This document shows, piece after piece, positions 22,497-25,007 of a stretch of 64,000 nucleotides of DNA. The translations under genes and the position numbers were made by a program. The notes below the pieces were generated by a model. That model made no database searches, was not told where the DNA came from, and worked only from the letters and a program-made list of their open reading frames with translations. Numbering within the stretch: position 1 is the first letter of the stretch; each line of letters opens with the position of its first letter. The stretch is from Escherichia phage p000y, in sequence record MK047718.1, one strand, 5' to 3'.

Positions 22497-22793
22497 ATGA
22501 TTTTAACTGAACAAGAGACTATGGTTCTTCGTGAACGTATTAAAACTATTCTGTCTGTAGGCGTTCATTGTGTTGTATTTGAAAAGGCTAACGGTGAGGT
22601 ACGCACTATGTTTGCTTCGCGCGATGAACTTGAAGTCAAATATGAAAATAACAATCCGGCAACAGAAGTTCGTTCTGAACCTCGTGAATCAGTTCGAGCA
22701 TTCGATACCAAGTTAGGTCAGTGGCGTTCTTTCCGCCTTGATAAAGTAATTTCGGTTGATGGTACTCCGGTAGAACGTTTGCTTCTTATGTAA
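22497..22793 (+). CDS. Hypothetical protein (between cd and 31)
   Basis: ATG at 22497 in TAATATG overlap with cd stop (track ORF begins at GTG 22485); ~98 aa. Confidence 0.5.
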   Translation: MILTEQETMVLRERIKTILSVGVHCVVFEKANGEVRTMFASRDELEVKYENNNPATEVRSEPRESVRAFDTKLGQWRSFRLDKVISVDGTPVERLLLM

Positions 22794-22795
22794 TA

Positions 22796-22820
22796 TGCTT
22801 TACGAATAGTATGGTATTAT
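22796..22820 (+). promoter_or_regulatory. Putative MotA-dependent middle promoter for gene 31
   Basis: MotA-box-like TGCTTTA with TATTAT 12 nt downstream. Confidence 0.4.
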
Positions 22821-22850
22821 TAATCTATCGTCAAACAACAAGGAAATAAG

Positions 22851-23183
22851 ATGTCTGAAGTACAACTCCCAATTCGTGCTGTTGGTGAATATGTCATTCT
22901 GGTTTCTGAACCCGCTCAAGCAGGTGATGAAGAAGTTACCGAATCAGGACTTGTGATTGGTAAACGTGTTCAAGGTGAAGTTCCTGAACTATGTATAGTT
23001 CATTCTGTAGGTCCTGATGTTCCTGAAGGTTTTGTTGAAGTCGGTGATTTGACTCCACTACCAGTTGGACAAATTCGAAATGTTCCACATCCATTTGTGG
23101 CTTTAGGACTTAAACAACCTAAAGAAATTAAACAGAAATTCGTAACATGCCACTATAAAGCTATTCCGTGTCTTTATAAGTGA
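22851..23183 (+). CDS. 31: Co-chaperonin gp31 (GroES-like)
   Basis: 110 aa, [34 protein letters not shown]... near-identical to remembered T4 gp31. Confidence 0.95.
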
Positions 23184-23191
23184 TATAAATA
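23184..23191 (+). promoter_or_regulatory. Late promoter (TATAAATA) between gene 31 and rIII
   Basis: Exact TATAAATA directly after gene 31 stop. Confidence 0.5.
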
Positions 23192-23307
23192 ACTATATGA
23201 AGAGAACACTCTTCTAAGCGGTAGCCTACAACTGAGAGACTTGTCGAAAGAAGGTGAAATTCAGACGAACGTGGCTACTAAATATTATCTCGAATTGAGA
23301 ATTTAAA

Positions 23308-23556
23308 ATGATTAAACAATTACAACACGCTCTTGAACTGCAACGAAACGCATGGAATAACGGTCACGAAAACTACGGCGCGTCAATTGATGTTGAAGCC
23401 GAAGCACTGGAAATCCTGCATTATTTCAAACATCTGAACCCGGTACAGGCAGCTTTGGCCTCTGAACTGGAAGCAAAAGATGAACTGAAATATGCTAAGC
23501 CTTTGGCTTCTGCAGCTCGTAAAGCAGTACGTCATTTTGTTATTACCCTTAAATAA
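23308..23556 (+). CDS. rIII: Lysis inhibition accessory protein rIII
   Basis: 82 aa, same length and position as T4 rIII. Confidence 0.8.
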   Translation: MIKQLQHALELQRNAWNNGHENYGASIDVEAEALEILHYFKHLNPVQAALASELEAKDELKYAKPLASAARKAVRHFVITLK

Positions 23557-23851
23557 GTTTTAGGTGATTCGCTACCTTAAGTGCGGCTAGAAAATCGAGG
23601 AGCCGTCGAACTGTCTGATTAATGATTTGCGAATCATTATAGTTTTAAGGCCCCGGCAGTTTTACGGTGTACCTCTTGAATGTATTTTGTACTATCACGC
23701 GTCAGAAAAAGGTTATCTGTCTAAGTCGTGGTTGGTATGATGACGGGTTTATGGTTATCCTGTCGTTAAATATCCAAAACCTATGTTCCCCTTGAGGGCT
23801 TGCGCAGGCAATGTCAATAAGTCCTGCATTTTCATTTAAAGAGAATTTATA

Positions 23852-24031
23852 ATGGCAAAACAAGCTAAAGCAAAGAAAGCAGTTGAAAAGAAAGTTGATG
23901 GTACCTCTAAACGCGCTGGATACAAGCGTGGGTCGAACTCTCGTATTAATCAAACAGTTGAGAAGATCATGCGCAGAGCACGTGCAGTTCTTCGAGATGA
24001 TGCTTCTCGTTTTGGAAAGGTTGTTGCATAA
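23852..24031 (+). CDS. Small highly basic protein (59 aa), hypothetical
   Basis: ATG 23852 to TAA 24031 translated by hand: MAKQAKAKKAVEKKVDGTSKRAGYKRGSNSRINQTVEKIMRRARAVLRDDASRFGKVVA; followed directly by tetraloop terminator; below the 60-aa track cutoff. Confidence 0.45.
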   Translation: MAKQAKAKKAVEKKVDGTSKRAGYKRGSNSRINQTVEKIMRRARAVLRDDASRFGKVVA

Positions 24032-24036
24032 TTTTA

Positions 24037-24058
24037 GGGAGACTTCGGTCTCCCTTTT
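24037..24058 (+). terminator. Tetraloop terminator GGGAGAC-UUCG-GUCUCCC + UUUU
   Basis: Same hairpin as at 8805; directly follows the 59-aa ORF. Confidence 0.8.
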
Positions 24059-24091
24059 GTGCGTTTAGGGCAGAAAAAGTTTAAAAAAGAT

Positions 24092-24120
24092 GTTTACTCT
24101 CCTGTAGGATGTGTTACTAT
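24092..24120 (+). promoter_or_regulatory. T4 early promoter
   Basis: GTTTAC-N17/18-TACTAT. Confidence 0.6.
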
Positions 24121-24162
24121 AGACTTGTACCACCTAATCAATAAAACAAACCGGAGAACAAA

Positions 24163-24531
24163 ATGAAAATCAATCTGAACTCATACATCAAATGTAAAGA
24201 CCACGATGGTTATAAAGCTATCGAAATTAAAGAATTCCAGTGGATGTTATACAAAGAGCAATTTGAGTTCGTAGGTTGTATGACCCCTGAAGGTCCTTCA
24301 GATGATTTCTCTTGGAAAATTGTGTTAGCAAACTTTTTCACAGGTGACACATACGAATTAAAAACTATTATTACCGGTAAAATTCGTTCAGAAACATATG
24401 TTGACGAAGAAACTGGTTACTCTGAAGTTGTTACATGGTATCAAAATGGACGCATTACAGCAGATAACCTGATCGAAAAAATGAAAGCCAAAGGTGTTTT
24501 AAATTTAGACAATTGGATTAAAGTTGCATAA
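24163..24531 (+). CDS. Hypothetical protein (30.x block)
   Basis: 122-aa ORF after early promoter 24092-24120. Confidence 0.55.
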   Translation: MKINLNSYIKCKDHDGYKAIEIKEFQWMLYKEQFEFVGCMTPEGPSDDFSWKIVLANFFTGDTYELKTIITGKIRSETYVDEETGYSEVVTWYQNGRITADNLIEKMKAKGVLNLDNWIKVA

Positions 24532-24535
24532 AACA

Positions 24536-24565
24536 GTTTACTTTGGTACAGGTTATGTTATTATA
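24536..24565 (+). promoter_or_regulatory. T4 early promoter
   Basis: GTTTAC-N18-ATTATA; inverted repeat GGTACAGG/CCTGTACC brackets the -10. Confidence 0.55.
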
Positions 24566-24605
24566 GACCTGTACCAACAAACAACTTAAACATCTGGAGA
24601 ATAAA

Positions 24606-24971
24606 ATGAACTACATCAACTTCGAACGTAAATATGTTTCTAACGGTATCGCTGGTTCTTCTGAAGTTATTTGCCTGTGGAAACACGAAAACGGTTCAGT
24701 ATGTGAAATTGAGCAGTATATGACTCCTAATTACGTTTATATGCGATTTGAAAATGGCATCACGGTTTCAATCACGATGGAAGGTTCAAATTTTAAAATT
24801 GCATTAGATGATGATTTCCGTCAGCGTGATTTAGGTACTCATCCTTGCTGGAATGGTGTTAATCGTAAACTTCTGGTTAAAACTTGGATTCGTCATATCC
24901 TGAGTAACCGAGCTAAACCTGAACATCTCGAAGCAATCTTTGATGTAGTTCTTAACGAATTTGATATCTAA
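24606..24971 (+). CDS. Hypothetical protein (30.x block)
   Basis: 121-aa ORF after early promoter 24536-24565; GGAGA RBS. Confidence 0.55.
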   Translation: MNYINFERKYVSNGIAGSSEVICLWKHENGSVCEIEQYMTPNYVYMRFENGITVSITMEGSNFKIALDDDFRQRDLGTHPCWNGVNRKLLVKTWIRHILSNRAKPEHLEAIFDVVLNEFDI

Positions 24972-24978
24972 ATTAATT

Positions 24979-24994
24979 GGGAGCCGAAGCTCCC
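24979..24994 (+). terminator. Intercistronic tetraloop hairpin GGGAGC-CGAA-GCUCCC
   Basis: Perfect 6-bp stem; weak U-run, so may be a stabiliser rather than a full terminator. Confidence 0.5.
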
Positions 24995-25007
24995 TATTGA
25001 GGAAATT

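Follow-up and report, generated by a model that had tools for sequence, protein, structure and literature searches.

The subject of this analysis is a 64,000-nucleotide (nt) stretch of the genome of Escherichia phage p000y (MK047718.1), referred to here as the window, and more particularly the 295-nt spacer between the genes rIII and 30.9 (positions 23557-23851, + strand), referred to as the tract. The region is 99-100% identical to Mosigvirus phages (RB69-like, T4-type). In order along the + strand there are gene 31 (22851-23183), rIII (23308..23556), the tract, gene 30.9 (23852-24031), an intrinsic terminator closing the rIII-30.9 unit (24036-24061) and gene 30.8 (24163-24531). The product of rIII, the upstream cistron of this unit, is a lysis-inhibition accessory protein that was matched to phrog_1457 (E = 7.6e-43) and is named rIII in relatives. 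For comparison, approximately 70 loci were retrieved, by way of gp30.9, from collections of viral and metagenome sequences (those cited individually carry numbers prefixed with L). The order gene 31, rIII, 30.9, 30.8 was found to be kept in a tblastn map of the window and these loci, and also in the annotation of T4, T6, ATK47 and VR26.

An earlier note on this DNA, made from the sequence alone, had singled out the tract as a gap free of open reading frames (ORFs) and unusual in a tightly packed genome. Both observations hold, as there is no + strand ORF of 60 amino acids (aa) or more between rIII and 30.9, and the spacer is the longest in the window (the runner-up having 125 nt) when a spurious antisense ORF is set aside. 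That ORF, of 83 aa (23702-23953, - strand), overlaps 30.9 and is almost certainly not a gene. The main finding is that the tract is a selected, structured, sense-strand RNA segment of the rIII-30.9 transcript, a conclusion that we regard as firm. It folds better on the + strand than on the - strand (-72.4 vs -58.3 kcal/mol). As a single sequence the whole tract of the window folds no better than its shuffles (z = -0.55; the T4 tract reaches z = -2.59), and the case therefore rests on the comparison of relatives and not on folding energy.

The tract alone matches 775 phage records by blastn, T4 included, with identities of approximately 90% to T2 and T6 and 77% to T4. The T4 match is the rIII-30.9 spacer at 130541-130778 of AF158101, which is unannotated in that record. 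In every T4-like locus examined that has both genes, the spacer is 120-416 nt long and structured on the gene strand. Of the origins proposed in the earlier note, a remnant of a deleted element is contradicted by this conservation and by the compensatory changes described below, while a long structured 5' untranslated region (UTR) fits what was found, namely structured + strand RNA with covariation upstream of an ORF. For its third proposal, a small RNA, the indications are mixed: the tract matches nothing in Rfam and in a simple scan showed neither promoter nor terminator, but its units behave autonomously and a copy stands in the tRNA operon of phi92-like phages. The covariation across related phages that it had asked for was found in three of the structured units, M2, MB and M1. 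The Rfam search that it had also suggested gave no match of the tract to any Rfam 15 family: there are no matches at the gathering threshold in the whole window, only chance-level matches at E <= 10 in 23150-24250, and nothing relevant in eight related loci. ARAGORN predicted no transfer RNA (tRNA) or transfer-messenger RNA (tmRNA) gene in 22500-25000 of the window or in the T4-like loci.

An explanation of the tract as a relic or as a site acting at the DNA level (degenerate ORFs, a scar left by a lost mobile element, a repeat belonging to a replication origin, or genuine small ORFs) is in our judgement very improbable. It could draw on ORFs called within the tract in GenBank for G53 (37 aa) and NicPhage (42 aa), on a pattern-based "ori type 2 repeat" placed 10 nt before 30.9 in ATK47, and on the former UniProt entry for T4 30.9, whose 97 aa extended into the tract. 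However, the small ORFs are not conserved, being cut to 20 aa or given a different C-terminus in T4, and 1-nt indels are common even between close relatives (294 vs 295 nt; 244 vs 245 nt). No ORF in the tract is conserved in frame and length among relatives. The 97-aa version of 30.9, like a 72-aa extension found in some records, is out of frame and impossible in the window because an in-frame stop codon lies just upstream. The compensatory changes, together with G.U pairs that can form on the + strand only, point to RNA and not to DNA or protein. Small ORFs of 37, 42 or 35 aa have been called in these spacers in some public records.

The structured RNA of the tract is built of separate units, which in the window occur in the order M1, MB, MC, M2, M4a, M4b and a hairpin containing the Shine-Dalgarno sequence of 30.9. 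When the spacers are compared side by side, this order is seen to differ among genera. T4 lacks MC. Three Mosigvirus-like contigs (L010, L018 and L044) lack M1 and MB, leaving a spacer of 162 nt in which the MC hairpin stands straight after the rIII stop codon. Since both units are cleanly missing from these near-identical relatives, M1 and MB are dispensable in nature. In Klebsiella-type phages the order is a hairpin, M2, M1, M3, M4a, ML and a Shine-Dalgarno hairpin, and other T4-like spacers start with M4a directly behind the rIII stop codon. The cores of three of the units each occur once in the 64 kb of the window, so that the units are not dispersed repeats.

The strongest unit is M2 (23738..23789, +), an H-type pseudoknot recognized by covariation. 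Its first helix, P1, pairs 23742-23747 with 23759-23764. In the second, P2, the loop pairs with a tail that lies behind a conserved linker (CGUUAAAUAUCCAAAAC), the best register in the window being UAUGG (23750-23754) with CUAUG (23781-23785). An alignment of 32 distinct versions was built by us in a fixed register, in which the inner two P1 pairs were chosen among three positions. In this alignment 85.9% of cells are paired, against 69.4% in column shuffles, and the covariation score of 0.465 (0.182 in shuffles) was reached by none of 500 shuffles, with every slid register giving 0.18 or less. Changes on both sides of a pair were found in 3/5 P1 pairs and 4/5 P2 pairs, the variants of P2 including GUGAG/CUCAC, AGUAG/CUACU, GAUGG/CCAUC, GUUGG/CCAAC and CAAGG/UCUUG. 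A covariance model of M2 (R1) matches the 64-kb window at a single place (46 bits, E = 1.5e-7) and each T4-like locus searched once, always 5' of 30.9; only the divergent L061 and the 5'-truncated L026 were missed.

M1 (23568..23586, +) is a hairpin of four base pairs (UCGC/GCGG) with a conserved loop (UACCUUAAGU). Pairing is possible in 90.9% of cells compared to 79% in shuffles, both-sided changes occur in two of the four pairs (CGC/GCG, CAC/GUG, UGC/GCA, AGC/GCU), and the covariation score of 0.48 (0.21 in shuffles) was reached by 0/500 shuffles. Just before it, 5 nt past the rIII stop codon, the sequence reads as a Shine-Dalgarno-like AGGUGAU (23562..23568, +) with no conserved start codon behind it, and GGUGAU or GGAGAU precedes M1 in most lineages.

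MB (23595..23679, +) is an 85-nt hairpin in three tiers, the outer GAGG/CCUC, the middle GCCGU/ACGGU and the inner GAACUGUC/GGCAGUUU. It folds at -25.4 kcal/mol as a single sequence (z = -2.59). RNAalifold predicted 25 pairs from 16 variants, five of them with compensatory changes, two in the apical hairpin and the others in both enclosing helices. Three G.U/U.G pairs fit the + strand only, as they become A.C mismatches on the other strand; two of these never vary, and in 11/16 sequences the third is U.G. The apical hairpin (23619..23639, +) is the perfect hairpin of the earlier note, present as TAATGAT (23620-23626), TTGCGA (23627-23632) and ATCATTA (23633-23639) and folding as 8 base pairs with a 4-nt loop. 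By itself it falls short of significance (-4.7 kcal/mol, z = -1.74). It gains significance from relatives, since L059 and L067 have UAUCGAU/AUCGAUA at this place, changing AAUGAU/AUCAUU to AUCGAU/AUCGAU by two compensatory pairs, i.e. both-sided changes. MB is missing from many T4-like genera and, as noted above, from some Mosigvirus genomes.

MC (23690..23737, +) is a cassette hairpin that folds at -12.3 kcal/mol as a single sequence. In L010 and L039 its inner helix is CAGC/GCUG instead of CAGA/UCUG, and its outer helix is wholly replaced in L039, L071 and Yersinia phage TG1. MC holds the first and M2 the second of the GGTTATC direct repeats to which the earlier note pointed. The copies are indeed present (23711 and 23753) but are weak evidence by themselves, with seven copies on the + strand and three on the - strand of the window. 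The match extends to 11 of 12 nt (GGTTATCTGTC vs GGTTATCCTGTC) and mirrors the likeness of the two hairpin units.

In phages related to JS98, VR26 and T4, the site of MC (23681-23737 in the window) holds a different element of approximately 140 nt, M3, which was found in 407 T4-like phage records, once per record, and is absent from the window. Examples are L007 (~720-870) and L023 (~1245-1385). For M3, RNAalifold predicted 45 pairs, 23 with compensatory changes, and a covarying loop-loop (kissing) pairing was recognized by eye (GAUGG/CCAUC, UAUGG/CCAUA, AAUGA/UCAUU). It also has long invariant unpaired runs, among them GCUAACGGUGUGCAACAGAU. There was no Rfam match to M3, and its core had no matches in GTDB genomes. 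M3 looks like an undescribed complex RNA family.

The 3' part of the tract is compatible with two small hairpins, predicted from sequence comparison. M4a (23785..23802, +) would be a CCC-loop-GGG hairpin in a conserved GUWCCC..GGGCUUG; its stem is nearly invariant and thus weakly tested (GCC/GGC in L075, by eye), and its loop varies in length and sequence. M4b (23802..23827, +) would pair GCAGG with CCUGC around a conserved 14-nt loop (CAAUGUCAAUAAGU), with 100% of cells paired and one covarying pair (A-U to U-A); in other genera different hairpins occupy its position. For the M4 region as a whole, the pairing proposed by RNAalifold (GGGCUUG with CAAUAAGUCC) has no covariation and is broken in 2/10 sequences, while in the two-hairpin alternative 98.6% of cells are paired, with a single covarying pair. 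The last unit (23829..23845, +) is a weak hairpin, UUUUC-AUUUAAA-GAGAA, whose 3' arm is the Shine-Dalgarno sequence of 30.9. This geometry is kept in all lineages, with other sequences outside that of the window (UCUCCA/UGGAAGA, CCUC/GAGG, UUCU/AGAG).

The spacer between gene 31 and rIII is built in a similar way. In 23184-23307 of the window and in 17 other loci it contains a late promoter (TATAAATA), a hairpin where the late transcript is predicted to start, a second hairpin that varies, and a Shine-Dalgarno hairpin for rIII (CUC-GAAUU-GAG in the window; CCUC-AUUU-GAGG in most genera). Within this spacer lies ML (23218-23279, +), a long hairpin of the form GCGGUAGCC UACAAC UGAGA..UUCAG ACGAACGU GGCUACU, with a conserved internal loop of UACAAC opposite GAAGAACGU. 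It is present in 887 phage records, one copy per genome. ML is homologous, with compensatory changes, to the hairpin just 5' of the 30.9 Shine-Dalgarno sequence in Klebsiella- and Enterobacter-type T4-like phages. ML thus belongs to the leader of rIII in the window but to that of 30.9 in Klebsiella-type phages, and serves different leaders in different genera. A loop motif in distant homologues of 30.9, CAAGAACAC, recalls the GAAGAACGU of ML.

This likeness between the two spacers bears on the possibility that the tract is a passive structured spacer, made of interchangeable hairpins that have no specific ligand and carry out the housekeeping of the mRNA: blocking 3' exonucleases, providing sites at which RNase III or RNase E could process the intercistronic RNA, as in T7 early mRNA, or avoiding Rho-dependent polarity. 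The gene 31-rIII spacer is built alike in all lineages, cassettes are swapped at MC (MC, M3 or nothing) and at M4b (several hairpins), and the quasi-continuous helix of MB, of approximately 25 base pairs, has a size that fits RNase III. Housekeeping hairpins need no conserved loop or linker, however, and the single-stranded nucleotides of the M2 linker CGUUAAAUAUCCAAAAC and of the M1 and M4b loops are strongly conserved across genera. A pseudoknot with a covarying P2 is also more specific than a barrier requires, and the near-ubiquity of M2 argues for a specific role. We consider this explanation unlikely.

The downstream cistron of the unit is the short basic ORF of the earlier note, which is real: it has 18 Lys/Arg residues among its 59 (30.5%) and is intact in hundreds of relatives. 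Its identity was missed at the time, as it is the known T4 gene 30.9 (synonym 31.-2; phrog_1427, E = 2.4e-31, 108.8 bits, residues 1-57), and it is annotated as 30.9 in ATK47 and T4. The protein is 96% identical to T4 gp30.9 over 56 residues, and the neighbours (rIII upstream, 30.8 downstream) and the terminator are the same as in T4; the last three residues differ (KVVA against KQKA), which is not a substantive difference. There are 125 clusters of gp30.9 homologues in T4-like phages of many enterobacterial hosts, besides more distant relatives, and in 12 close and 36 distant homologues the core S-K-R-A-G-Y-K-R-x-S-N-x-R, followed by R-A-R, is invariant or nearly so. No relative was found in Pfam, NCBIfam or the PDB, and PHROGs gives only the unnamed phrog_1427. 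The AlphaFold2 model is of low confidence, with a mean pLDDT (predicted local distance difference test) score of 67.6, and has only a basic Lys-rich N-terminal tail (52-62) and one helix at residues 30-52. The role in binding nucleic acids or ribosomes that the earlier note proposed for the protein is conjectural. In several public records the protein is misnamed "1,4-alpha-glucan branching enzyme". In T4, the RNAs of rIII and 30.9 both belong to the early class, with no protein class given for 30.9 (PMC9697503, supplementary file 4), and the knock-down of 30.9 was scored "Not Fit", i.e. without a fitness effect, in CRISPRi-ART on a laboratory host (PMC11879866, supplementary file 15). A 2003 paper in Biologija on rIII and 30.9 expression is cited in PMC9409239.

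The terminator that the earlier note had placed after this ORF could be located at 24036-24061 as AGGGAGAC-UUCG-GUCUCCCU followed by UUUGUG (-14.1 kcal/mol, z = -3.46). It has the G+C-rich stem-loop, the U tract and the position at the end of a transcription unit that are expected of an intrinsic terminator, is also annotated in the GenBank relatives ATK47 and G53, and keeps its position in T4 and in distant 30.9 homologues. Inside 23557-23851 no sigma-70-like promoter or terminator was found with a simple scanner, which also overlooked the 30.9 terminator, and by eye neither a MotA box nor the late promoter TATAAATA fits inside the tract. Further downstream, sequences resembling T4 early promoters (GTTTAC-spacer-TACTAT/TATTAT) precede 30.8 and 30.7 at ~24085-24135 and 24535-24580 (+). 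These overlap GTACC/GGTAC inverted repeats and are similar to promoter-early stem-loop cassettes.

The distant gp30.9 homologues (~45-50% identity) are encoded on metagenome contigs (L076-L083) outside the T4 gene order, next to e.g. a Shufflon_N-domain gene and an HMG-CoA reductase gene. There the gene stands alone: a sigma-70-type promoter of its own and a 5' UTR with a hairpin precede it, its Shine-Dalgarno sequence (GGAG) is strong, and a terminator follows. As these homologues have a hairpin 5' UTR of their own, a structured leader travels with the 30.9 family.

Taking these observations together, we tentatively favour, with confidence somewhat short of even, the view that the tract is a cis-acting leader within the rIII-30.9 mRNA, which limits the translation of 30.9 and shields the untranslated spacer, and whose pseudoknot may be an operator. 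Transcripts would enter from promoters upstream of rIII and of gene 31, traverse the spacer and stop after 30.9. The last hairpin would partly mask the ribosome-binding site of 30.9, so that few ribosomes would start on these read-through transcripts, and the stable units would hold the long untranslated stretch folded and so protect it from Rho loading and ribonucleases. By analogy with known systems, M2 could be the operator for a factor acting in trans, an idea suggested by its conserved single-stranded nucleotides and its presence in nearly all T4-like relatives. The simplest candidate for such a factor would be the very basic gp30.9, acting as its own repressor in the way known for T4 gp32 and a number of ribosomal proteins. 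The read-through transcription, the binding of gp30.9 and the regulatory effect are all inferred.

A number of observations weigh against such a leader. The Shine-Dalgarno hairpin is weak (-2 to -5 kcal/mol). In the clade of the window P2 is also weak, with only GG/CC in the aligned register and no covariation, although with a shift of 1 nt UAUGG can pair with CUAUG, two of the pairs being G.U. Between M2 and the start codon of 30.9 lie ~60 to ~290 nt and other folded units, a variable spacing that is awkward for an operator acting on the ribosome-binding site. The R1 model finds no M2 in the distant gp30.9 homologues. The units are reordered among phages, ML having its place before rIII here but before 30.9 in Klebsiella-type phages, and the natural Mosigvirus variants mentioned above are entirely without M1 and MB. 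Finally there are two natural cases, Yersinia phage TG1 and phages like phi92, in which the tract and 30.9 have been parted.

In TG1 (L084, NC_028820, 842-1625) the units M4a, M2 and M1, a hairpin and the Shine-Dalgarno hairpin are retained, although the 30.9 frame runs into an unrelated 208-aa protein after codon 17 and the SKRAGYKR core is lost. Justusliebigvirus phages are not T4-like. At least 17 of their genomes, that of phi92 among them, have a 332-bp insert between the genes for tRNA-Gly and tRNA-Gln (in phi92, L006, NC_023693, at 1487-1831). The insert consists of a T4-type tract (M1-MB-M2-M4) followed by the ATGG of 30.9, which is fused to the final 26 codons of rIII, and this chimeric mini-ORF is annotated "rIII". 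These phages thus have the tract inside a tRNA operon and without 30.9. By eye the insert is 97-99% identical to T4-type copies. A 13-nt direct repeat, TTTATTGGAGATT, borders it on both sides; relatives free of the insert have one copy (344-359 in phage alia, L017), and R1 finds no M2 at the insertion-free site. The circularly permuted order points to a donor in which the DNA had formed a small circle or been tandemly duplicated, followed by recombination at microhomology. As the tRNA-Gln region of phi92 and the post-rIII sequence of T4 have TTTATTGGAGATT in common, M1 had been suspected of being the 5' half of a tRNA; this idea was dropped because the insertion-free site of phage alia already has those 13 nt. 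By our estimate, 13-nt chance matches between two genomes of 150-170 kb are plentiful, and TTTATTGGAGATT is read as the microhomology used in recombination. The phi92 insertion is one recent event and could be neutral.

The two cases bear on a further explanation, in which the units, once excised from the rIII-30.9 transcript, would be stable non-coding RNAs working in trans. In this role they might assemble with gp30.9 into a ribonucleoprotein, or serve as decoys or ligand binders directed at a host factor or a defence system, with 30.9 being a neighbour or partner and not the target. This idea is kept alive by the cases of phi92 and TG1, by the place of ML in the rIII leader, by the reshuffled order of the units and by the lack of a fixed distance from M2 to the ribosome-binding site. 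The units behave as autonomous elements, shuffled both between genera and between two spacers, and M3, at the position of MC, is closer in appearance to an aptamer or a ribozyme than to a plain leader. A T4-type tract is carried in the tRNA array of the phi92-like genomes without 30.9, and the TG1 leader persists without the 30.9 core. The strong conservation of unpaired nucleotides in the linker of M2 and in the loops of M1 and M4b would also be in keeping with RNAs that act by themselves. Against this, no unit was found by the simple scan to be bracketed by a promoter or terminator, and there is no Rfam family and no tRNA or tmRNA signal. The single phi92 insertion may be neutral, and some Mosigvirus genomes that are otherwise almost identical have lost M1 and MB. 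In the searchable literature no mention was found of stable T4 RNAs from the rIII-30.9 locus. We consider this explanation doubtful, although it deserves to be kept in view.

Put more broadly, it is possible, but on present evidence improbable, that the rIII-30.9 spacer is a modular non-coding RNA locus (M2, M1, MB and ML, with M3 elsewhere), whose cassettes are swapped between phages and are independently functional RNAs. Such RNAs may bind ligands or proteins, may be partners of gp30.9 in a small ribonucleoprotein or may be decoys, and they may be mobile into unrelated phages as in phi92. The cis-acting leader remains the reading that we favour.

T4 has one of the most thoroughly annotated of all genomes, yet this stretch of 240-300 nt is bare in its record. 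The searchable literature, which leaves older papers in subscription journals outside its scope, gave no description of the tract. Gene 30.9 is already known, and it is the RNA motifs that appear to be undescribed, with M2 here and M3 in relatives being candidates for new RNA families absent from Rfam. Families for M2 and M3 would help in annotating the hundreds of genomes of therapeutic phages in which gene callers place doubtful small ORFs. If the units do act in trans they would represent a new class of phage-encoded functional RNAs, and if they merely tune 30.9 they would add one more example of leader control in T4.

Among known systems, the closest in kind to the favoured leader are the autoregulatory pseudoknots of the T4 gene 32 leader and of ribosomal-protein mRNA operators (S15, S4). 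The gene 32 leader likewise has an H-type pseudoknot 5' of the cistron of a small protein of the nucleic-acid-binding kind, in a long-lived mRNA leader. In gene 32, however, an unstructured A/U tract leads from the pseudoknot to the ribosome-binding site, whereas 60-290 nt with folded units lie between in the case of M2, so that the fixed linkage of operator and ribosome-binding site that marks operators of the gene 32 type is not seen. There is no sequence similarity between M2 and the gene 32, S15 or S4 pseudoknots, and no Rfam match of any kind.

In its architecture M2 resembles the preQ1-I riboswitch (RF00522) and other small H-type aptamers, which have a short stem, pairing of the 3' part of the loop with the tail, and an A-rich linker; in M2 this linker would run along the groove of the stem. 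The linker of M2 is much longer (~17 nt), there are no genes for queuosine or other metabolites nearby, and no expression platform is evident, given the variable distance to the ribosome-binding site. No match to RF00522, RF01054 or RF02680 was found in 23150-24250 even at E <= 10.

The early mRNA of T7 has intercistronic hairpins that are processed by RNase III. MB is likewise a long imperfect hairpin (~25 base pairs with internal loops) between two cistrons, and its cleavage is putative; it differs from the T7 hairpins in being missing from many T4-like genera and some Mosigvirus genomes. The modular shuffling of T4-type genomes is reportedly driven by promoter-early stem-loop (PeSL) cassettes, in work attributed to Arbiol et al. 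in 2010. Like these, the units of the tract are short, conserved non-coding cassettes that occur in differing orders and are apparent mediators of recombination. They differ from PeSL cassettes in having no early promoter, according to the scan of 23557-23851, and in being covarying RNA folds.

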